Assembly (NCBI RefSeq): GCF_058153355.1 | Contig: NZ_CM177019.1 | DNA length: 64,000 nucleotides | Direction: 5' to 3' (one strand) | In this document: piece after piece, positions 17,147 through 40,190 of the stretch | Layout: the number at the start of each line of letters is the position of its first letter | Numbering within the stretch: the first letter of the stretch is position 1 | The notes under the pieces: generated by a model | What the model was told of the DNA's origin: nothing | Database searches by the model: none | The model's input: the letters and a program-made list of their open reading frames with translations, nothing else | Program-made: the position numbers and the translations under genes

Positions 17147-18142
17147 TTAATCAAAATATTGCGTCTGGATAAATTCACTAAGCTGCCGCAGGCCGGTGCG
17201 CGGTGAGAGCGTATTATTTTTGACCGCTAAAAGCGTCTGGCGGTAATAGCGATCGAAATCTTCATTCGCGAACAGGTGATTCAGTACTTCTTCTTCGGTC
17301 TGCTTACGCAGCCATTCCACCGATTGTTGTTGCCGCACTTGCTGTAAACGACCACTGGCAGTTAGCGCGGTTTTGAAGTCGATGATGGCGTGCCAGATCT
17401 CATCGATTCCACGTTTTTCCAGTGCGCTACAAGTCAGAACTCGTGGCTGCCATTCGTCGTATTTACGTCGCAGAATATGCAGGGCACTCTCGTACATATG
17501 CCGGGCAATGGCGACATTGGTATGGTTATCGCCATCGTCTTTGTTGATAACGATCAGATCTGCCACTTCCATCAGTCCCTTTTTAATCCCCTGCAGATCA
17601 TCGCCGCCACCGGCAATTTGCAACGAGATAAAACAGTCCACCATGCGGGCGACTTCCGTTTCCGACTGTCCGACGCCAACCGTTTCGACAATCACTACGT
17701 CATAACCCGCCGCTTCGCATAACAGCATTAATTCCCGCGCTCGCTGACTGGCACCGCCCAGATGGCTGGAGGATGGTACCGGGCGAATAAACGCCGCCTC
17801 GGCACGCGCCAGGTCATTCATGCGGGTTTTATCCCCGAAAATGCTACCGCCAGTGACCGGGCTGCTGGGATCGACCGCAATAACCGCAACCTTTAGTCCC
17901 TCACGAATCAACAACATGCCAAAGGCTCCAAGAAAGGTACTTTTCCCCGCGCCGGGTGTGCCGGTAACACCCAGTCGCAGGGCGTTACCACAGAACGGCA
18001 TAATGGCATCAAGCAGTTGCGTACTTAGCGCCTGATGACGCGGGTGACGGCTTTCCACCAGCGTCATGGCCTGGGCGAGCGTGGCACGCTCACCCTGACG
18101 TAAGCGGCGAATACTTTCTGCCAGCGTGGCTTCATTAATCAT
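17147..18142 (-). CDS. argK: methylmalonyl-CoA mutase-associated GTPase (MeaB/ArgK)
   Basis: 331-aa ORF with P-loop GTPGAGKST; overlaps scpA stop. Confidence 0.9.
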
Positions 18143-20279
18143 GATGCTGGCTTATCAGATTCAGTACGTCGCGCACGCTGTCGAGCATAGGCGTACCTGG
18201 ACCATAAATCGCCGCCACGCCGCGCTCCTGCAGGAAGGCGTAATCCTGCGGTGGAATGACGCCACCCGCGACCACGAAAATATCTTCGCGATTCCATTTC
18301 TTCAGCGCTTCGACCAGTTCCGGGATCAGCGTTTTATGACCGGCAGCCAGTGAAGATGCGCCCACTATGTGAACGTCGTTTTCTACTGCCAGGCGGGCGA
18401 TCTCTTCAGGTGTAGAGAACATCGGGCTTAAATCTACGTCGAAACCGAGATCGGAATAGGCGCTGGCGATCACTTTCGCGCCGCGATCGTGCCCATCCTG
18501 GCCCATTTTGGCGATCAGAATGCGCGGGCGACGACCATTGTCGGCAAGGAACTGCTCCGTTTGCGCAACAATGGCATCGAACTCGGAGGCCGATTTCTCA
18601 GACTGATGATAGCTTTGCGCAATCACGCCGGTAACACACTGGCTTGGCACCAGATAACGGTCGAAAGCGGCTTCCAGCGCATCGGAAATTTCACCCAGGG
18701 TGGCGCGAACGCGAGCGGCATTAACAGCGGCAGCCAGCAGGTTTTCGTTGTGCTGTGCGGCGTGAGTCAGGGCGTTCAACGCGGCGGTTACGGCGGCATC
18801 ATCACGGGTGGCGCGAATGCGTTCCAGCGAAGCAATTTGCTCGTTACGCACCATCACGTTGTCGATCTCAAGTACATCGGTTTCGTCTTCGTGATCCAGT
18901 TTGTACTTGTTGACACCAACGATGACACGCTTGCCCTGGTCGATCAACGACTGTTCGCGCGCGGAGGCCTCTTCGATCATTCGTTTTGGCAGACCTGCTT
19001 CGATCGCTTTCGCCATGCCACCGGCTTCGTCGATCTGTTGGATAATGGCTCTGGCTTGTTTGACGATTTGATCGGTCAGCGATTCAACGTAATAGGATCC
19101 GGCCAGTGGATCGACGGTGCGGCAGAGTTCTGATTCTTCCTGAATGATGATCTGGGTATTGCGGGCAATGCGTGCTGAGAAATCGGTTGGCAAACCCAGC
19201 GCTTCATCAAAGGCGTTGGTATGCAATGACTGAGTACCGCCCAGCGTTGCAGCCAGTGCTTCAATGGTGGTGCGGATAACGTTGTTATACGGATCCTGTT
19301 CAGTCAGGCTCCAGCCTGAGGTCTGGCAGTGGGTACGCAGCGCCAGTGATTTCGGATCCTGTGCGCCAAATCCACTGACCGCTTCGCTCCATAAATAACG
19401 TGCCGCACGCAACATGGCGACGTTCATAAACAGATCCATGCCAATGCCGAAGAAAAACGACAGGCGAGGAGCAAAGTCATCAATTTTCAGCCCAGCGGAG
19501 ATTGCTGCTTTGATGTACTCAATCCCATCAGCGAGCGTAAATGCTACCTGCTGCACGCAGTTGGCACCCGCTTCACCCATATGGTAACCGCTGATACTGA
19601 TGGTATTAAATCGCGGCATGTTGCCGGAACACCAGGCGATGATGTCTGCGATAATACGCATTGACGGTTTTGGCGGGTAAATATAGGTGTTGCGGCAAAG
19701 ATACTCTTTGAGGATATCGTTCTGAATGGTGCCTGTCAGTTTATCGGGTGTAACACCTTGCTCTTCTGCGGCGACAATATAAAACGCCAGTACTGGTAGT
19801 ACTGCGCCATTCATGGTCATCGAAACCGACATTTTATCCAGCGGGATCTGGTCGAACAGGACTTTCATATCTTCCACGGTGTCGATGGCGACGCCCGCTT
19901 TGCCGACGTCACCCGCAACGCGCGGGTTATCGGAGTCGTAGCCACGGTGGGTGGCAAGGTCAAACGCAACGGAAAGACCTTTTTGCCCGGCGGCCAGGTT
20001 ACGGCGATAAAAAGCGTTAGACTCTTTTGCTGTCGAGAAACCGGCATACTGACGGATAGTCCACGGTTGGGCGGTATACATAGTGGCACGCGGGCCACGA
20101 ACGTAGGGTGGCAAACCAGGAAGGGTACCGGTCACTTCCAGATTATCGAGATCGGCTTCAGTATACAGCGGCTTGATGGCGATCCCTTCTGCGGTTTGCT
20201 GAACCAGCGAGTCGACAGTTTTCTCCCGACGGCTCAATTCCTTGTTGGCAAGCTGTTGCCACTCCTGCACGTTAGACAT
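18135..20279 (-). CDS. scpA: methylmalonyl-CoA mutase (sleeping beauty mutase)
   Basis: Start at 20279 ([14 protein letters not shown]); 714 aa; B12-dependent mutase sequence. Confidence 0.92.
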
Positions 20280-20482
20280 TATTTGCTCCATAAAACGCAA
20301 TCAAAATGAGGGTATTTGCGCTTACGGTGAGCTTTTTACGTGGGTTTGTCGCCAGCAAAAAAAATGCATTCAGACGTCGTTTTTTGCCGCCTGAGATTTG
20401 TCTATTTTGTGATGTGATTCAAGGAATACAAAAAGAACTGGAGGTGATGCCTGGTATGTATTACCAGGCATTATTTGATGGA

Positions 20483-21376
20483 TTATTCCTGACGAAGAAC
20501 TTTGTGACCATAATCGAGCAACGCATCAGTGACTTTACGCATCATGCGGCTTTCAGGAGCAAAGCGGTGCCAGTAGAGCATCCGGCGTTGAAATAGCCCT
20601 GGCGTTAAGTCAATCAGTTCGCCGCTGGCCAGTTCTTTCTCGATTTGCAGATGTGGGATCATACAGCAGGTGGTCCCCTGACGAGCAAGTTGCACGAACG
20701 CTTCTGAAGAATTAACGATATGGCAGGGTACGCTGCCTGGAGGCAGATCAAAGTTTTGCTGCAAAAAGGCCTGGTGCATATCATCAAGATGGTCAAAGGC
20801 GACCACTGGCGCTTTCAGTAATGCCGAACGCGTTACGCCGTTAGGGAAATATTTTTCGGCGAACGGTTTTGAGCTGACGAACAGATAGTCGAGCGCACCG
20901 AGCTTATCGACAAGACAACTCGGTAGCGCCTGATGTTGAATACTCACCGCGCCGACCACTTCGCCGCGACGCAGACGTTCCTGAGTGCGGGTTTCATCTT
21001 CTACCTGCAAGTTGAGGCGGATAGGCGAATCAGCTAACACAGGAGCCAGCGCCGGAAGCAACCACGTCGCCAGACTGTCAGCGTTGACCGCCAGTGAAAG
21101 CAGCAGCGGAGTTGAACCGGTTTGTTCATCGCCCAGCCACTCTTCTTCCAGTAACTCCACCTGGCGTAGCAGTGCCAGCAGTTTTTGCCCTTGTTCCGTC
21201 GGGCGCGGCGGTACGGTACGCACCAACAGCGGCTGCCCGAACATATTTTCCAGTTGCTTAATGCGCTGTGAGACGGCTGATTGTGTAATGCACAGCTTTT
21301 GTGCCGCGCGCTCAAATCCTCGTTCACGTATCACCGCATCCAGTGCCTGTAATGTTCTGTAGTCCGGGCGTTTCAT
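20483..21376 (-). CDS. argP: LysR-family regulator ArgP (IciA)
   Basis: Start at 21376 ([15 protein letters not shown]); 297 aa. Confidence 0.9.
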
Positions 21377-21516
21377 TGCTGTTGTCTGCTCCTGGTAAAT
21401 GCTTTTTCCTGCACTATGACACAATTTTGCGTCAGGTTGCATATACCGAAGCCGTCGGCGGGTACATTTGTATCAGTGGTTAAACACGCAGCTTAAAAGA
21501 TCAGGGATTTGCGCTA

Positions 21517-21747
21517 TTGCATTTCGCTCAGCGAGTTCGCGCCCTGGTTGTGTTGAATGGCGTGGCGTTATTGCCTCAATTTGCCTGTAAACAGGGGCTT
21601 GCCAACGGTGAACTGGTGCGCCTGTTCGCACCGTGGAGCGGCATACCCAGACCGTTGTATGCTTTATTTGCCGGGCGAAAGGGGATGCCCGCCATTGCGC
21701 GATATTTTATGGATGAGTTAACCACGCGGCTTGCCAACGGGGTCTGA
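21517..21747 (+). pseudogene. yqfE: LysR-family regulator C-terminal remnant
   Basis: 76-aa ORF resembling only the C-terminal effector-domain end of a LysR regulator; no N-terminal helix-turn-helix domain present. Confidence 0.55.
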
Positions 21748-21762
21748 ATCGCTTTTTTTGTA

Positions 21763-21887
21763 TATACTCGTCATACTTCAAGTTGCATGTGCTGCGTCTG
21801 CGTTCGCTCACCCCAGTCACTTACTTCTGTAAGCTCCTGGGGATTCACTCTCTTGTCGCCTCCCTGCAACTCGAATTATTTAGAGTA
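21763..21887. repeat. ERIC element, copy 2 (inverted relative to copy 1)
   Basis: Reverse complement matches 8453-8577 with about 3 mismatches. Confidence 0.85.
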
Positions 21888-21925
21888 TAATGCGAGTGAA
21901 ATTTCATACCACAGGCGAAACGATC

Positions 21926-22585
21926 ATGACGCAGGATGAATTGAAAAAAGCAGTAGGATGGGCGGCACTTCAGTATGTTCAGCCCGGCACCATTGTTGGT
22001 GTAGGTACAGGTTCCACCGCCGCACACTTTATTGACGCGCTCGGCACGATGAAAGGCCAGATTGAAGGGGCCGTTTCCAGTTCGGATGCGTCCACTGAAA
22101 AACTGAAAAGCCTCGGCATTCACGTTTTTGATCTCAACGAAGTCGACAGCCTTGGCATCTACGTCGACGGTGCAGATGAAATCAACGGCCACATGCAGAT
22201 GATCAAAGGCGGCGGCGCGGCGCTGACCCGTGAAAAAATCATTGCTTCGGTTGCGGAAAAATTTATCTGTATTGCAGACGCTTCTAAGCAGGTTGATATT
22301 CTGGGCAAATTCCCGCTGCCAGTAGAAGTTATCCCGATGGCACGTAGTGCAGTGGCGCGCCAGCTGGTGAAACTGGGCGGTCGTCCGGAATACCGCCAGG
22401 GCGTGGTGACCGATAACGGCAACGTGATCCTCGACGTCCACGGCATGGAAATCCTTGACCCAATAGCGATGGAAAACGCCATAAATGCGATTCCGGGCGT
22501 GGTGACTGTTGGCTTATTTGCTAACCGTGGCGCGGACGTTGCGCTGATTGGCACACCTGACGGTGTCAAAACCATTGTGAAATGA
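21926..22585 (+). CDS. rpiA: ribose-5-phosphate isomerase A
   Basis: Start at 21926 ([15 protein letters not shown]); 219 aa. Confidence 0.93.
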
Positions 22586-22840
22586 TCTGACGGGGGAATC
22601 TCCCCCGTTAAAAAAATTCTCTTCGTTAAATTTGGTGACATGTGTCACGTTTTTACCTGGCTATTGTCGATTGCTCTAAATAAATCCTCTAATCCAGCAT
22701 ATTCATCCAAGAAAAACCTTTGCGTGATATTTCCTCAACATCGCGACGCAAACGTTCATATTGCCGCAATATTATTTTTTGATATGTTGAAAGGCGGATG
22801 CAAATCCGCACACAACATTTCAAAAGACAGGATTGGGTAA

Positions 22841-24073
22841 ATGGCAAAGGTATCGCTGGAGAAAGACAAGATTAAGTTTCTGCTGGTAGAAGGCGTGCAC
22901 CAAAAGGCGCTGGAAAGCCTTCGTGCAGCGGGTTACACCAACATCGAATTTCACAAAGGCGCGCTGGATGATGAACAATTAAAAGAATCCATCCGCGATG
23001 CCCACTTCATCGGCCTGCGATCCCGTACCCATCTGACTGAAGACGTGATCAACGCCGCAGAAAAACTGGTCGCTATTGGCTGTTTCTGTATCGGAACAAA
23101 CCAGGTTGATCTGGATGCAGCTGCAAAACGCGGGATCCCGGTATTTAACGCACCGTTCTCTAATACGCGCTCTGTTGCGGAGCTGGTAATTGGCGAACTT
23201 CTGCTGCTATTGCGCGGCGTACCGGAAGCCAACGCTAAAGCGCACCGTGGTGTCTGGAACAAGCTGGCAGCTGGCTCTTTTGAAGCGCGCGGCAAAAAGC
23301 TGGGTATCATCGGCTATGGTCATATTGGTACACAGTTGGGCATTCTGGCTGAATCGCTGGGAATGTATGTTTACTTTTATGATATTGAAAACAAACTGCC
23401 GCTGGGCAACGCCACTCAGGTACAGCATCTTTCTGATCTGCTGAATATGAGCGATGTGGTGAGTTTGCATGTGCCAGAGAATCCGTCCACCAAAAATATG
23501 ATGGGCGCGAAAGAGATTTCACTAATGAAGCCCGGCTCGCTGCTGATTAATGCCTCGCGCGGAACGGTGGTGGATATTCCGGCGCTGTGTGACGCGCTGG
23601 CGAGCAAACACCTGGCAGGTGCGGCAATCGATGTCTTCCCGACGGAACCGGCGACCAACAGCGATCCATTTACCTCTCCGCTGTGTGAATTCGACAACGT
23701 CCTTCTGACGCCACATATTGGCGGTTCGACTCAGGAAGCGCAGGAGAATATCGGCCTGGAAGTTGCGGGTAAATTGATCAAGTATTCTGACAATGGCTCA
23801 ACGCTCTCTGCGGTGAACTTCCCGGAAGTCTCGCTGCCACTGCACGGTGGGCGTCGTCTGATGCACATCCACGAAAACCGTCCGGGCGTGCTAACTGCGC
23901 TCAACAAAATTTTTGCCGAGCAGGGCGTCAACATCGCCGCGCAATATCTGCAAACTTCCGCCCAGATGGGTTATGTAGTTATTGATATTGAAGCCGACGA
24001 AGACGTTGCCGAAAAAGCGCTGCAGGCAATGAAAGCTATTCCGGGTACCATTCGCGCCCGTCTGCTGTACTAA
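22841..24073 (+). CDS. serA: D-3-phosphoglycerate dehydrogenase
   Basis: 410-aa ORF MAKVSLEKDKIKFLLVEGVHQ...; canonical SerA. Confidence 0.95.
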   Translation: MAKVSLEKDKIKFLLVEGVHQKALESLRAAGYTNIEFHKGALDDEQLKESIRDAHFIGLRSRTHLTEDVINAAEKLVAIGCFCIGTNQVDLDAAAKRGIPVFNAPFSNTRSVAELVIGELLLLLRGVPEANAKAHRGVWNKLAAGSFEARGKKLGIIGYGHIGTQLGILAESLGMYVYFYDIENKLPLGNATQVQHLSDLLNMSDVVSLHVPENPSTKNMMGAKEISLMKPGSLLINASRGTVVDIPALCDALASKHLAGAAIDVFPTEPATNSDPFTSPLCEFDNVLLTPHIGGSTQEAQENIGLEVAGKLIKYSDNGSTLSAVNFPEVSLPLHGGRRLMHIHENRPGVLTALNKIFAEQGVNIAAQYLQTSAQMGYVVIDIEADEDVAEKALQAMKAIPGTIRARLLY

Positions 24074-24093
24074 ATCCCCTTCTCTGAAAATCA

Positions 24094-24125
24094 ACGGGCA
24101 GGTCACTGACTTGCCCGTTTTTTTA
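24094..24125 (+). terminator. serA intrinsic terminator
   Basis: Hairpin ACGGGCA...TGCCCGT followed by TTTTTTT. Confidence 0.75.
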
Positions 24126-24229
24126 TCCCTTCTCCACACCGTTGCCGCATTGCGCATTCTACTTTGCGAGTCTGCTCCAGAAAATAAATCAAAGTCAGAT
24201 CAATGCGTTGTGTTTGTTTAATGAGGATT

Positions 24230-24375
24230 TAGGATGGCGAGGCAGCATAGGGCTACAACGGTAAAGCCCTCACCGAAGCGAGGGCTTGAAGGAGAAGGGT
24301 TATGATGCGACTCGTCATCATACTGATTGTACTGTTACTCATAAGTTTCCCAGCTTATTAACAGTCAGTCACAGG
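24230..24375 (-). ncRNA. sibC: SibC antisense sRNA (antitoxin to ibsC); ends approximate
   Basis: Inferred from the known Sib/Ibs arrangement in which the sRNA fully overlaps the toxin ORF on the opposite strand; boundaries not determinable from sequence alone. Confidence 0.45.
24302..24361 (+). CDS. ibsC: type I toxin IbsC (19-aa hydrophobic peptide)
   Basis: GAAGGAGAAGGG Shine-Dalgarno then ATGATGCGACTCGTCATCATACTGATTGTACTGTTACTCATAAGTTTCCCAGCTTATTAA = MMRLVIILIVLLLISFPAY; too short for the ORF track. Confidence 0.8.
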   Translation: MMRLVIILIVLLLISFPAY

Positions 24376-24461
24376 GGAGGAGCAATCCTCCCTTACCCTT
24401 ACTCACTAAATTAGGTCAAAGAATCAACGATGTCAATCAGGGCGATGCAGGTGTGTCGCCC

Positions 24462-25010
24462 TCACCACTCCCAGACTTTCGACGGCGTAACTACTGCAGG
24501 AAGTGGAATATCCCACTCTTCAACGGGGAGTTTTTCTACCAACTGACAATCATGCGCATAACCCACCGGTTGCATTTGATAGCGCTGCCAGTTTTGTAAG
24601 GTCCGATCATAAAAACCACCGCCCATTCCCAGGCGCTGACCGTACTCATCAAAGGCGACCAGCGGTGTGATCAACACGTCTAATCGGGAAAGGGGTAGCA
24701 CGTCACGCACATCCAGTTTTGGCTCATGGATCTTCAACCTGTTCATCACCAGTTCGCTTTGCGGATGGTAATTCAGGAACAGCAAATTACCGGCACTAAA
24801 GGGATGCAAAACTGGAAGATATACGCGCTTACCGGCGCGCCAGAGTTGTTCTATGAGTGGCTGGGTGTCGAGTTCGCCATCAAAAGAGAGGAATACAGCG
24901 ACCGTATGCGCCATCACCACCGGGGGATAAGTCATCATCCGGGTAGCAGCTTGTTGACCCATTTCTTGCTGTTGTTTCGGCGTTAACGCACGACGACGTT
25001 GCCGAATCAT
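24462..25010 (-). CDS. ygfA: 5-formyltetrahydrofolate cyclo-ligase
   Basis: Start at 25010 (MIRQRRRALTP); 182 aa; downstream of ssrS in the same transcript. Confidence 0.85.
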   Translation of the reverse strand: MIRQRRRALTPKQQQEMGQQAATRMMTYPPVVMAHTVAVFLSFDGELDTQPLIEQLWRAGKRVYLPVLHPFSAGNLLFLNYHPQSELVMNRLKIHEPKLDVRDVLPLSRLDVLITPLVAFDEYGQRLGMGGGFYDRTLQNWQRYQMQPVGYAHDCQLVEKLPVEEWDIPLPAVVTPSKVWEW

Positions 25011-25082
25011 TTTGCGGATTTCTTGTCGATATAATGTCAGTGGGATTTCTGGTAGTTGCGTCATGGCTGGTGCCAGATAAGA

Positions 25083-25268
25083 AGGGAATCTCCGAGATGC
25101 CGCCGCAGGCTGTAACCCTTGAACCCTTGGTTCAAGGTGAATGTGTCGTCACAGTTTTAAGGCTTCTCGGACGGACCGAGCATGCTCACCAACCGCGGAG
25201 CGCCACATTCTTGTGGTATGAAATATCGGCTCAGGGGACTGGCCCGCTTGCGAACATCTCAGAGAAAT
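25083..25268 (-). ncRNA. ssrS: 6S RNA
   Basis: Reverse complement reads ATTTCTCTGAGATGTTCGCAAGCGGGCCAGTCCCCTGAGCCGATATTTCATACCACAAGAATGTGGCGCTCCGCGG...GGAGATTCCCT, the 6S RNA sequence. Confidence 0.93.
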
Positions 25269-25309
25269 TTTGTCTTCACGGTTACTCTACCACAGTAAAC
25301 CGAAAAGTG

Positions 25310-25705
<396 letters not shown>

Positions 25706-25806
25706 CTATAGCTACCCTGATGAGAAGAGACAAGCCCTTTTCTGGTCCACCAGGGCCCAAAGTGGTAGCATATCATGAATATTCCTCCCTTTGACGACGA
25801 ATGCTT

Positions 25807-26385
25807 ATGTCTATACAGAACGAAATGCCTGGTTACAACGAAATGAACCAGTATCTGAACCAACAAGGGACGGGTCTGACCCCTGCTGAGATGCATGGTT
25901 TAATCAGTGGGATGATATGTGGTGGTAACGATGACAGCTCATGGCTGCCACTGCTTCACGACCTGACGAACGAAGGCATGGCTTTCGGTCATGAGCTGGC
26001 ACAGGCATTGCGCAAAATGCACTCTGCTACCAGCGATGCCCTGCAGGATGACGGCTTCCTTTTTCAGCTTTATCTGCCTGATGGCGATGATGTCAGTGTT
26101 TTCGATCGTGCTGATGCGCTGGCAGGTTGGGTCAATCACTTCCTGCTTGGTCTTGGCGTTACGCAACCGAAGCTGGACAAAGTGACCGGCGAAACCGGTG
26201 AAGCCATCGACGATCTGCGTAACATCGCGCAGCTGGGCTACGACGAAGACGAAGATCAGGAAGAGCTGGAAATGTCGCTTGAAGAGATCATCGAGTACGT
26301 CCGTGTTGCCGCGCTGTTATGCCACGACACCTTTACTCATCCGCAACCGACCGCGCCAGAAGTACAAAAACCGACTCTACACTAA
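25807..26385 (+). CDS. ygfB: UPF0149 family protein
   Basis: About 192 aa; first gene of the ygfB-pepP-ubiH-ubiI cluster. Confidence 0.8.
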
Positions 26386-26410
26386 AAACAAAAAACGTAA
26401 GGAGAGTGTT

Positions 26411-27736
26411 ATGAGTGAGATATCCCGGCAAGAATTTCAGCGTCGCCGTCAGGCCCTGGTAGAGCAAATGCAACCCGGCAGCGCCGCGCTGATTTTCGCG
26501 GCACCAGAAGTGACCCGTAGCGCCGACAGCGAATACCCCTATCGTCAGAACAGTGACTTCTGGTACTTCACCGGCTTTAACGAACCGGAAGCGGTGCTGG
26601 TACTGATTAAAAGTGATGACACTCATAACCACAGCGTTTTGTTTAACCGCGTGCGCGACTTGACGGCGGAGATCTGGTTTGGCCGTCGTTTAGGTCAGGA
26701 TGCCGCGCCAGAGAAACTGGGCGTTGACCGCGCACTGGCGTTCAGTGAAATCAATCAGCAACTTTATCAACTGCTTAATGGTCTGGATGTGGTTTACCAC
26801 GCTCAGGGCGAATATGCCTATGCTGATGAAATCGTGAACAGCGCGCTGGAAAAGCTGCGTAAAGGCTCGCGACAAAATCTCACCGCGCCAGCAACGATGA
26901 TCGACTGGCGTCCTGGTGTTCATGAAATGCGCCTGTTCAAATCGCCGGAAGAGATTGCCGTACTTCGCCGCGCGGGTGAAATCACTGCCCTGGCGCATAC
27001 CCGGGCGATGGAAAAATGCCGTCCGGGGATGTTCGAGTACCATCTGGAAGGCGAAATTCACCACGAATTTAACCGCCACGGTGCGCGTTACCCTTCCTAT
27101 AACACCATTGTTGGCAGCGGTGAAAACGGCTGCATTCTGCATTACACCGAAAACGAGTGTGAAATGCGCGACGGCGACCTGGTGCTGATTGATGCTGGTT
27201 GTGAATACAAAGGTTACGCTGGCGATATTACCCGCACCTTCCCGGTTAACGGTAAATTCACTCAGGCTCAGCGTGAAATCTACGACATTGTGCTGGAGTC
27301 TCTTGAAACCAGCTTGCGCCTGTATCGTCCGGGAACGTCCATTCAGGAAGTCACCGGTGAAGTGGTGCGCATCATGGTTAGCGGCCTGGTAAAACTCGGC
27401 ATCCTGAAAGGTGATGTTGATGAACTGATCGCTCAGAACGCCCATCGTCCTTTCTTTATGCATGGCCTTAGCCACTGGTTAGGTCTGGATGTCCATGATG
27501 TTGGTATTTATGGTCAGGATCGCTCGCGCATTCTGGAACCGGGCATGGTACTGACCGTAGAGCCGGGGCTGTACATTGCGCCGGATGCGGATGTACCAGA
27601 ACAATATCGCGGTATCGGCATTCGTATCGAAGACGACATTGTGATTACCGAAACCGGCAATGAAAACCTCACTGCCAGCGTAGTGAAAAAGCCGGAAGAA
27701 ATTGAAGCGTTGATGGCTGCTGCGAGAAAGCAATGA
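26411..27736 (+). CDS. pepP: Xaa-Pro aminopeptidase
   Basis: Start at 26411 (MSEISRQEFQRRRQ); 441 aa; the long ORF-track start is in the ygfB frame tail. Confidence 0.92.
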   Translation: MSEISRQEFQRRRQALVEQMQPGSAALIFAAPEVTRSADSEYPYRQNSDFWYFTGFNEPEAVLVLIKSDDTHNHSVLFNRVRDLTAEIWFGRRLGQDAAPEKLGVDRALAFSEINQQLYQLLNGLDVVYHAQGEYAYADEIVNSALEKLRKGSRQNLTAPATMIDWRPGVHEMRLFKSPEEIAVLRRAGEITALAHTRAMEKCRPGMFEYHLEGEIHHEFNRHGARYPSYNTIVGSGENGCILHYTENECEMRDGDLVLIDAGCEYKGYAGDITRTFPVNGKFTQAQREIYDIVLESLETSLRLYRPGTSIQEVTGEVVRIMVSGLVKLGILKGDVDELIAQNAHRPFFMHGLSHWLGLDVHDVGIYGQDRSRILEPGMVLTVEPGLYIAPDADVPEQYRGIGIRIEDDIVITETGNENLTASVVKKPEEIEALMAAARKQ

Positions 27737-28911
27737 GCGTAATCATCGTCGGTGGCGGCATGGCGGGCGCGACGCTGGCGCTGGCTATTTCCCGGTTAAG
27801 TCACGGGGCGCTGCCGGTACATTTGATTGAAGCGACTGCGCCAGAGTCACATGCTCATCCGGGCTTTGATGGACGAGCTATTGCGCTGGCGGCGGGTACT
27901 TGTCAGCAACTGGCGCGCATCGGCGTCTGGCAATCTCTGGCTGATTGCGCAACCGCCATCACCAGCGTGCATGTCAGCGATCGTGGTCATGCCGGATTCG
28001 TCACCCTCGCCGCAGAAGATTACCAACTGGCGGCGCTGGGGCAGGTTGTCGAATTGCATAATGTCGGGCAACGGCTGTTTGCATTGCTGCGCAAAGCACC
28101 TGGCGTAACGCTGCATTGTCCGGATCGCGTGGCTAACGTTGCCCGTGCTCAGAGTCACGTTGAAGTGACGCTGGAGAGTGGCAAGACGTTGACGGGGCGT
28201 GTGCTGGTCGCTGCTGATGGCACCCATTCCGCGTTAGCCACCGCGTGCGGTGTTGACTGGCAGCAGGAGCCTTACGAACAACTGGCCGTGATTGCGAACG
28301 TTGCGACTTCCGTTGCGCACGAAGGCCGGGCGTTTGAGCGTTTCACACAATATGGCCCGTTGGCGATGTTGCCGATGTCTGACGGACGCTGTTCGCTGGT
28401 CTGGTGCCATCCACTGGAACGGCGCGAAGAGGTGCTGTCGTGGAGCGACGAGACGTTTTGCCGTGAACTCCAGTCGGCCTTTGGCTGGCGACTTGGGAAA
28501 ATTACCCACGCTGGTAAACGCAGTGCTTACCCGCTGGCGTTAACCCGCGCCGCCAGACCTGTTACCCATCGTACCGTGCTGGTGGGCAATGCGGCGCAAA
28601 CCCTGCACCCGATTGCCGGGCAAGGATTTAACCTCGGTATGCGTGATGTGATGAGCCTTGCGGAAACGCTGACTCAGGCTCAGGCACGTGAAGATGACAT
28701 CGGTGATTACGGCGTATTGTGCCGTTATCAGCAGCGTCGGCAGAGCGATCGCGAAGCAACCATCGGTGTCACGGACAGCCTTGTACATCTTTTTGCTAAC
28801 CGTTGGGCACCGTTGGTTGTCGGGCGCAACCTCGGGCTGATGACGATGGAATTATTCACCCCAGCACGCGATGTGCTGGCGCAGCGCACCCTCGGTTGGG
28901 TGGCGCGTTAA
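27733..28911 (+). CDS. ubiH: 2-octaprenyl-6-methoxyphenol hydroxylase (FAD monooxygenase)
   Basis: 392-aa ORF with N-terminal GGGMAG FAD fingerprint; overlaps pepP stop by 4 bp. Confidence 0.9.
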   Translation: MSVIIVGGGMAGATLALAISRLSHGALPVHLIEATAPESHAHPGFDGRAIALAAGTCQQLARIGVWQSLADCATAITSVHVSDRGHAGFVTLAAEDYQLAALGQVVELHNVGQRLFALLRKAPGVTLHCPDRVANVARAQSHVEVTLESGKTLTGRVLVAADGTHSALATACGVDWQQEPYEQLAVIANVATSVAHEGRAFERFTQYGPLAMLPMSDGRCSLVWCHPLERREEVLSWSDETFCRELQSAFGWRLGKITHAGKRSAYPLALTRAARPVTHRTVLVGNAAQTLHPIAGQGFNLGMRDVMSLAETLTQAQAREDDIGDYGVLCRYQQRRQSDREATIGVTDSLVHLFANRWAPLVVGRNLGLMTMELFTPARDVLAQRTLGWVAR

Positions 28912-28933
28912 AGGCGGCTTTAAGGAATAAACA

Positions 28934-30136
28934 ATGCAAAGTGTTGATGTAGCCATTGTTGGCGGCGGCATGGTGGGGCTGGCGGTTGCCTGCGGCTTGC
29001 AGGGCAGCGGCTTACGCGTTGCCGTACTGGAGCAGCGCGTACCGGAACCTCTGGCGGCGGATGCACCACCACAACTGCGCGTTTCGGCTATCAATGCCGC
29101 CAGCGAAAAATTACTCACCCGTCTTGGCGTCTGGCAGGACATTCTCTCTCGTAGGGCCAGCTGTTATCACGGTATGGAAGTGTGGGACAAAGACAGCTTT
29201 GGTCACATTTCGTTTGACGATCAAAGCATGGGCTATAGCCATCTTGGGCATATCGTTGAAAATTCAGTCATTCACTACGCGCTGTGGAACAAAGCACAGC
29301 AGTCCTCAGATATCAGCCTGCTAGCCCCTGCAGAATTACAGCAAGTCGCCTGGGGAGAGAACGAAACCTTCCTGACGCTGAAAGACGGCAGCATGTTAAC
29401 GGCGCGTCTGGTAATTGGCGCAGACGGCGCTAATTCCTGGTTGCGCAACAAAGCCGATATTCCGCTGACTTTCTGGGATTATCTGCATCACGCGCTGGTG
29501 GCGACCATTCGCACGGAAGAACCGCATGATGCGGTGGCGCGACAGGTTTTCCATGGCGAAGGCATTCTGGCCTTTTTGCCGCTTAGCGATCCGCATCTTT
29601 GCTCAATTGTCTGGTCACTGTCGCCAGAGGAAGCACAGCGGATGCAGCAGGCAGGTGAAGACGAATTTAATCGCGAGTTAAATATCGCTTTTGATAATCG
29701 CCTGGGCTTATGCAAGGTTGAGAGTGAACGCCTGGTGTTCCCGCTGACTGGGCGTTATGCGCGCCAGTTTGCCGCGCACCGTCTGGCGCTGGTGGGCGAC
29801 GCCGCACATACCATTCACCCGTTGGCGGGGCAGGGGGTGAATCTCGGCTTTATGGATGCTGCAGAGCTGATTGCTGAACTGAAACGGTTGCATCGTCAGG
29901 GTAAAGACATCGGGCAGTACATTTACCTGCGTCGCTATGAGCGTAGCCGCAAGCACAGTGCGGCGCTGATGCTGGCAGGTATGCAGGGATTCCGCGATCT
30001 GTTTTCCGGGGCTAATCCGGCGAAAAAACTGCTGCGTGATATTGGCCTGAAACTGGCCGACACGCTTCCTGGCGTTAAACCACAACTTATCCGTCAGGCA
30101 ATGGGATTAAACGATTTGCCTGAATGGCTGCGCTAA
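28934..30136 (+). CDS. ubiI: 2-octaprenylphenol hydroxylase (FAD monooxygenase)
   Basis: 400-aa ORF, paralogue of ubiH (VisC). Confidence 0.9.
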   Translation: MQSVDVAIVGGGMVGLAVACGLQGSGLRVAVLEQRVPEPLAADAPPQLRVSAINAASEKLLTRLGVWQDILSRRASCYHGMEVWDKDSFGHISFDDQSMGYSHLGHIVENSVIHYALWNKAQQSSDISLLAPAELQQVAWGENETFLTLKDGSMLTARLVIGADGANSWLRNKADIPLTFWDYLHHALVATIRTEEPHDAVARQVFHGEGILAFLPLSDPHLCSIVWSLSPEEAQRMQQAGEDEFNRELNIAFDNRLGLCKVESERLVFPLTGRYARQFAAHRLALVGDAAHTIHPLAGQGVNLGFMDAAELIAELKRLHRQGKDIGQYIYLRRYERSRKHSAALMLAGMQGFRDLFSGANPAKKLLRDIGLKLADTLPGVKPQLIRQAMGLNDLPEWLR

Positions 30137-35104: not shown

Positions 35105-35307
35105 AAAGGCGCTTCGGCGCCTTTGACACTGATGTCAAACTCAACATTGCCTGATACACCTCGTTTATCAGGCCTACATAGTCTGTGCAATGTATTGAAT
35201 TTGCACGATTTTGTAGGCTGGATAAGGCGTTCACGCCGCATCCGGCATAATAAAAGCACTTTGTCATCAATAATTTGAAAGGCGCTTCGGCGCCTTTATT
35301 TTTTTAG
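35105..35307. repeat. BIME/REP cluster flanked by two copies of a terminator hairpin
   Basis: AAAGGCGCTTCGGCGCCTTT at 35105-35124 and again at 35277-35296, the second followed by a T-run; REP-like palindromes between them. Confidence 0.7.

Positions 35308-38806: not shown

Positions 38807-40190
<1,384 letters not shown>

Follow-up and report, generated by a model that had tools for sequence, protein, structure and literature searches.

The 64-kb stretch of DNA analysed here (hereafter, the window) carries, in the 388-nt intergenic region between serA and fau/ygfA, a 19-codon open reading frame (ORF) on the plus strand and, on the minus strand, a small RNA that runs antisense to the ORF and to its ribosome-binding site (Table 1). 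The intergenic region aligns without gaps with its counterpart in Escherichia coli K-12 MG1655 (NC_000913.3), where sibC (b4446, 141 nt) and ibsC (b4665) occupy the same position in the order serA, ibsC/sibC, fau-ssrS-zapA. The initial annotation of this DNA had placed a type I toxin-antitoxin locus, ibsC/sibC, between serA and ygfA, and the boundaries of the flanking genes bear this placement out.

Table 1. Features of the ibsC/sibC locus and of the neighbouring genes, in window positions
Feature	Position	Strand	Remarks
rpiA	21890-22585	+	
serA	22841-24073	+	
Whole locus, putative ibsC promoter through sibC promoter	~24208-24436	both	
Putative ibsC promoter	24208-24235	+	-35 TTGTGT at 24208-24213, 16-nt spacer, -10 TAGGAT at 24230-24235; read by eye
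ibsC mRNA	24242-24400	+	159 nt; predicted by transfer of the K-12 geometry; 18-nt 5' overhang past the SibC 3' end
SibC RNA	24260-24400	- (24400 to 24260)	141 nt; K-12 b4446 coordinates carried over through the ungapped alignment; covers the ibsC ORF and the ribosome-binding site
SibC terminator hairpin	24264-24287	-	10-bp stem, UUCG loop, then UACC; same as K-12; predicted fold
TRD2 of SibC	24286-24302	-	SibC +99 to +115; UAACCCUUCUCCUUCAA, as in K-12; pairs with the Shine-Dalgarno sequence and the A of the ATG
Shine-Dalgarno sequence GAAGGAG	24288-24294	+	7 nt to the ATG; same in K-12; inside the TRD2 target
ibsC ORF	24302-24361	+	19 codons and stop; DNA ATGATGCGACTCGTC...GCTTATTAA, translated as MMRLVIILIVLLLISFPAY and stop; collinear with K-12 ibsC b4665
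TRD1 of SibC	24333-24355	-	SibC +46 to +68; pairs with ibsC codons 11-18; mapped from PMC2943612
sibC promoter	24408-24436	-	-35 TTGACA at 24436-24431, 17-nt spacer, -10 TAATTT at 24413-24408, +1 at 24400
fau/ygfA	24462-25064	-	
6S RNA (ssrS)	25085-25268	-	Rfam RF00013, 138.1 bits, full length; 5' of fau as in K-12
zapA	25310-25639	-	
ygfB and pepP		+	Further neighbours of the locus

Both the short ORF and the strong Shine-Dalgarno sequence that the initial annotation had ascribed to it were recovered at the expected spacing, and the ORF is indeed invisible to a length-filtered track, being missing from the list of ORFs of at least 20 aa, so that ibsC confirms how real 19-codon genes escape such filters. 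The peptide, described beforehand as almost entirely hydrophobic, has a GRAVY of 2.40 over its 19 residues, compared with 1.98-2.59 for the K-12 Ibs peptides, and, its own second-ATG version (2.43) aside, is surpassed in hydrophobicity by only one (2.65) of the window's 460 ORFs that start with ATG and have 15-30 codons. The membership of the Ibs toxin family that had been proposed on this ground is upheld by profile matches and by sequence identity. Specifically, a paralogue HMM built from K-12 IbsA, IbsB, IbsD and IbsE only, with IbsC left out, gives the ibsC ORF a score of 45.4 bits (E 8e-13) in a search of 2,650 small ORFs in all six frames of the window, of which the runner-up reaches 6.2 bits, while the Pfam model PF13956 (Ibs_toxin) matches the peptide over its full length (positions 1-19 of 19, 44.6 bits, i-E 1.3e-11 per copy, the query being the peptide written twice to reach the 30-aa minimum). 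Moreover, the peptide agrees in every residue with RefSeq WP_071525914.1, which bears the name "type I toxin-antitoxin system toxin IbsC", and has the pattern MM[KR].[VL]II..V.LL..SF..Y in common with the K-12 Ibs paralogues. A search of NCBIfam with a 20-aa query, in which the in-frame Val upstream was added to the peptide, gave no match, most probably on account of the shortness of the query.

On the opposite strand, the fully overlapping antisense Sib RNA that had been postulated was identified by the Rfam scan proposed as a check in the initial annotation. The SIB_RNA model (RF00113) matches the minus strand at 24286-24436 from end to end (model positions 1-147 of 147) with 140.5 bits and an E-value of 7.6e-30, against a gathering score of 56, and when the scan was repeated over the whole 64 kb this was the sole Sib match. 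Both the ORF and its Shine-Dalgarno sequence fall within the SibC transcript as delimited by the K-12 coordinates. The range of 24230-24375 originally assigned to the locus stood only in part: it takes in the ORF and the ibsC -10 region on the plus strand and leaves out, on the minus strand, the sibC promoter and the 25 nt at the 5' end of SibC. The transcript is predicted to fold into a closing stem, three hairpins and a terminator (-54.7 kcal/mol, z -4.79 against shuffled sequences), and, when the window copy is aligned with the five K-12 Sib RNAs, compensatory changes are found in 8 of the 42 consensus pairs.

The sequence at 24401-24436 is the same as in K-12, and the sibC promoter that it contains lies within the first 36 positions of the Rfam model. 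A consensus scan of 24050-24500 called no promoter, neither that of sibC nor the putative one of ibsC, and missed the SibC terminator, returning only the serA terminator at 24093-24119; the sibC promoter was not called because its -10 element matches the consensus at only three of six positions, and the SibC terminator because of its short U-tract. In K-12, the ends of the Sib RNAs are described as well defined by Han et al. (PMC2943612), a Sib transcript of ~140 nt has been demonstrated (PMC2943612; PMC4447067), and the sigma-S RNA polymerase binds to the sibC promoter region (PMC4447067). SibC's two recognition domains, TRD1 and TRD2, were placed at +46 to +68 and +99 to +115, respectively, by Han et al. 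in 2010 (PMC2943612). A 29-codon ORF inside SibC (24253-24342, minus strand) was considered and rejected, as it has no Shine-Dalgarno sequence and its stop codon lies past the SibC 3' end. Upstream of the sibC promoter, an inverted repeat (AGGGCGA, 10 nt, TCGCCCT) is present at 24439-24462, where it directly follows the stop codon of fau (minus strand, 24462-24464) and precedes the -35 element of sibC by 3 nt; it is not followed by a U-tract, and the corresponding stem of K-12 has 8 bp. This repeat could function as a barrier or a processing site between read-through from ssrS-fau and sibC.

The limits of the ibsC mRNA given in Table 1 follow the K-12 transcript, for which Han et al. reported in 2010 a length of 159 nt and a 5' end that extends 18 nt past the 3' end of SibC (PMC2943612). 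With these limits, the window mRNA is predicted to adopt the same architecture as the K-12 mRNA (-61.1 kcal/mol, z -4.56). The putative ibsC promoter ends 7 nt 5' of the transferred start site at 24242 and aligns with the TTGCGT and AACAAT elements upstream of ibsD and ibsE; its -10 hexamer reads TAGGAT in the window and TACGAT in K-12. Conserved promoter elements upstream of ibsC are reported by Han et al. (PMC2943612). A 23-codon ORF at 24234-24305 (plus strand) was discarded as a leader peptide, since its ATG lies 5' of the transferred start site.

Most probably, the locus is orthologous to the type I toxin-antitoxin pair ibsC/sibC of E. coli K-12 and apparently intact, a reading to which a probability of about 95% can be assigned. 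As far as a sequence can tell, all the features that define the Sib RNA family, SibC orthology, and the Ibs toxin family are present; orthology to SibC in particular is indicated by the serA and fau/ygfA neighbours, which are those of K-12, and by recognition domains of the SibC type, and the window allele itself carries the ibsC annotation in RefSeq genomes. The identification is thus correct but already known, and there is nothing new at the locus. The K-12 pair has been characterised since 2008-2010, and of the 5,426 complete E. coli genomes all but one (5,425) carry the locus with the annotation ibsC; its relevance beyond correct annotation is slight.

The likeness to K-12 extends to the sibC promoter, the terminator, the Shine-Dalgarno sequence, and TRD2, all of which are identical, and to the lengths of the RNA and of the ORF, which are equal. 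The differences fall into the SibC transcript, which diverges at five positions (+30, +49 to +51, and +88), and into the ibsC promoter and 5' leader, where eight substitutions lie outside SibC. Within the transcript, the change at +88 is synonymous in ibsC codon 4, whereas the triplet at +49 to +51 (24350-24352) corresponds to codon 17 and converts the AGC (S) of K-12 into CCA (P), the sole difference between the two peptides. In the predicted fold, the same triplet belongs to the 8-nt loop of the TRD1 hairpin, where it reads UGG in the window and GCU in K-12, and TRD1 is otherwise identical. It is this triplet that Han et al. altered (primer C1d) to turn TRD1 of SibC to SibD specificity (PMC2943612). 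A codon that also sets the specificity of TRD1 provides a clean natural illustration of the model of Han et al., and, since one stretch of DNA encodes both toxin and antitoxin, cognate pairing is kept automatically.

Codon 17 is the most variable site of the Ibs peptides, encoding S in K-12 IbsC, P in the window, Q in IbsA, A in IbsD, P in IbsE, and G in one copy of the divergent "E. coli" SCPM-O-B-8794. The CCA of the window is one base away from the codons of K-12 ibsE (CCG) and ibsB (CCC), and proline is natural at the aligned position, being P17 in IbsE and residue 16 of the 18-residue IbsB. Moreover, the 59-nt core at 24322-24380, CCA included, is 100% identical in ~1,767 of the 5,082 matching complete E. 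coli genomes; P17 is thus a common natural allele, and the S17 of K-12 is simply another. The published toxicity of IbsC concerns the K-12 S17 form (PMC8309996; PMC2943612). In SCPM-O-B-8794 (NZ_JAATUR010000026.1, 1-471), which is ~90% identical to the window, two tandem sibC-type copies follow the 3' end of serA, compared with one in the window and in K-12, and the two differ from each other at the codon 17/TRD1 triplet, GGA in one and CCA in the other.

The second set of differences forms a divergent patch at 24216-24256, with 8 substitutions per 42 nt in comparison with the closest E. coli genomes. In the putative ibsC promoter it spans the spacer, the -10 element and the discriminator, and in the leader the first 15 nt; this is exactly the part of the ibsC unit that is not overlapped by SibC. 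Left unchanged are the promoter positions that match the consensus (TTG of the -35 element and TA..AT of the -10 element). Among the 5,426 complete E. coli genomes, the best identity is ~98-98.5% over 12 kb (18000-30000) and 97.2% over the intergenic region, and it is at most 93.5% in every one of them over 24195-24300; the exact 30-mer of the patch has no match in 100,044 species-representative genomes. The identity over the 12 kb suggests a less-sampled E. coli lineage. A scan with a SibC-specific anchor returned only two representatives, Escherichia sp. E1V33 and SCPM-O-B-8794, and four of the substitutions (24216G, 24224A, 24239G, and 24240A) are common to one or the other of these outgroup copies, whereas, among the sequences compared, only the window has 24232G, 24249A, 24255A, and 24256C.

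Several explanations of the patch were considered. As a statistical outlier it fails, because the closest genome, that of strain ST3 (1.53% overall divergence), also shows 9, 7, 7, and 7 mismatches to the window in four further 42-nt stretches of these 12 kb. Gene conversion from a paralogue was rejected, none of K-12 sibA, sibB, sibD, and sibE being nearer than sibC to the states of the window, and a compensatory change in the ibsC leader hairpin is unsupported, as one pair is strengthened (G-U to G-C) and another (C-G) is lost. The states held in common with the outgroup lend partial support to an origin of the patch in an older haplotype, either retained or imported. Since similarly dense patches occur elsewhere in the 12 kb, the patch appears to reflect the usual mosaic divergence of an E. 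coli lineage that is under-sampled.

It can nonetheless be asked whether the system works as in K-12 but with altered quantities, either because the substitutions in the promoter and leader, which could alter the transcription of the toxin relative to K-12, shift its expression, or because the CCA loop of TRD1 shifts the cross-talk among Sib RNAs. In more specific terms, the haplotype of the promoter and of the 18-nt leader would change the amount of toxin mRNA, or a SibE- or SibB-type RNA would cross-repress the CCA allele of ibsC; either outcome appears unlikely, and, if true, either would represent a quantitative variation on a known system. In favour of such a shift speak the four substitutions that none of the other sequences compared has and of which one (24232) falls in the putative -10 element, the low identity of the promoter region to all complete E. 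coli genomes together with the absence of its 30-mer from the representatives, the altered leader hairpin, and the coincidence of +49 to +51 with the triplet that Han et al. used for the ibsC-to-ibsD switch, at which the window stands one base from the ibsE and ibsB states. Conversely, similarly dense mismatch patches are found elsewhere in the 12 kb, half of the differences are common to outgroup Escherichia, the overall fold of the mRNA is unchanged, the CCA allele is very common, and the other sib loci of this genome lie outside the window.

An appreciably less probable reading takes the locus for a decaying and non-functional remnant whose RNA or peptide has ceased to be made or to be active. 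The eight substitutions that cluster in the promoter and leader of ibsC, including one in the putative -10 element, and the failure of the consensus scan to call a promoter would fit with such a decay, but the -10 change (C to G, hexamer position 3) affects a site that is off-consensus in both alleles, and the TTG of the -35 and the TA..AT of the -10 element are retained. Moreover, the ORF has an intact start and stop, the Shine-Dalgarno sequence, the sibC promoter, the terminator and TRD2 are intact and identical to those of K-12, the core recurs without a change in ~1,767 E. coli genomes, and substitution patterns reveal coding constraint. Specifically, a comparison of the eight 19-codon copies gives a ratio of synonymous to non-synonymous codon differences of 79:97 in the ibs frame, as opposed to 18:155 and 6:165 in the two alternative frames, and in the same eight full-length copies the variable columns at codon positions 1, 2, and 3 number 8, 3, and 11; IbsB (18 codons), which differs by an in-frame 3-nt deletion, was excluded from these counts. 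This pattern indicates that the ORF is under coding constraint and is no by-product of the Sib RNA. The notion that only the RNA matters, in a regulatory or structural role, and that the hydrophobic ORF arises from its sequence can hence be given hardly any credence: chance 19-codon ORFs do arise easily and the RNA structure is conserved, but the frame, length, start and stop are kept in 9 of 9 copies, the only indel of IbsB being an in-frame one of 3 nt, the ibs frame is strongly enriched in synonymous changes over the other two, the strong Shine-Dalgarno sequence is conserved at the right spacing, and the Ibs peptides are published as toxic and membrane-depolarising (PMC2943612; PMC8309996).

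For an intact orthologue of the K-12 pair, the mode of action can be drawn from published K-12 experiments, which underlie all the functional steps, while the window contributes the anatomy. SibC would be made continuously and would meet the ibsC mRNA at two independent recognition domains, the hairpin loop of TRD1 making a loop-loop contact within the ibsC ORF and TRD2 pairing across the Shine-Dalgarno sequence and the start codon. The pairing would then extend into the flanks, so that translation would be blocked, the duplex would become a substrate of RNase III, and no IbsC would be produced. Conversely, when the ibsC mRNA is in excess of SibC, the peptide would be expected to enter the inner membrane as a helix, to depolarise it in minutes, and to stop growth. 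In K-12, the contacts of the recognition domains, the spreading of the pairing, and the formation of a duplex that is an RNase III substrate are documented for SibC (PMC2943612), and IbsC has been described as forming a helix, depolarising the inner membrane in a matter of minutes, inducing the psp operon, and either killing or arresting the cell (PMC8309996). A further study reports that frameshifted ibsC products are still toxic (PMC7192591).

The four other pairs of K-12 (sibA/ibsA, sibB/ibsB, sibD/ibsD, and sibE/ibsE) share their architecture and RNA fold with the window copy, with compensatory changes of base pairs, and differ from it in the TRD1 and TRD2 regions that confer cognate specificity (PMC2943612). 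They are located elsewhere as tandem pairs (yegL-mdtA and yqiK-hldE), whereas the window copy is single. Among chromosomal systems, hok/sok, ldr/rdl, and tisB/istR-1 as well as shoB/ohsC also combine a small hydrophobic membrane toxin with a repressing antisense RNA (PMC2943612; PMC8309996), although their toxin families are unrelated in sequence to Ibs (PMC2943612). Unlike in the other type I systems of E. coli, the antitoxin RNA of Sib/Ibs covers the functional mRNA in its entirety, both ribosome-binding site and ORF included.

Other observations concern the surroundings of the locus and the rest of the window. The fau/ygfA ORF has 200 codons from its first ATG and is annotated with 603 nt in the RefSeq genomes of other strains and with 549 nt in K-12 MG1655; the gap is one of start-codon annotation and not of sequence. 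Farther upstream, between argP and rpiA, ~113 bases of the stretch at 21545-21705 are absent from E. coli strain ST3, and the stretch continues on the plus strand into an open frame whose stop codon lies at ~21745-21747. By eye, this open frame resembles the C terminus of a LysR-type regulator, and the corresponding position of K-12 is presumably occupied by the yqfE LysR-type pseudogene. Lastly, naRNA4/CssrE (RF02564) matches both strands at 40030-40107 (81.3 bits on the minus and 59.7 bits on the plus strand), which points to a palindromic, repeat-like element, and ES036/CssrF (RF02751) matches the minus strand at 35170-35212 with 43.2 bits.
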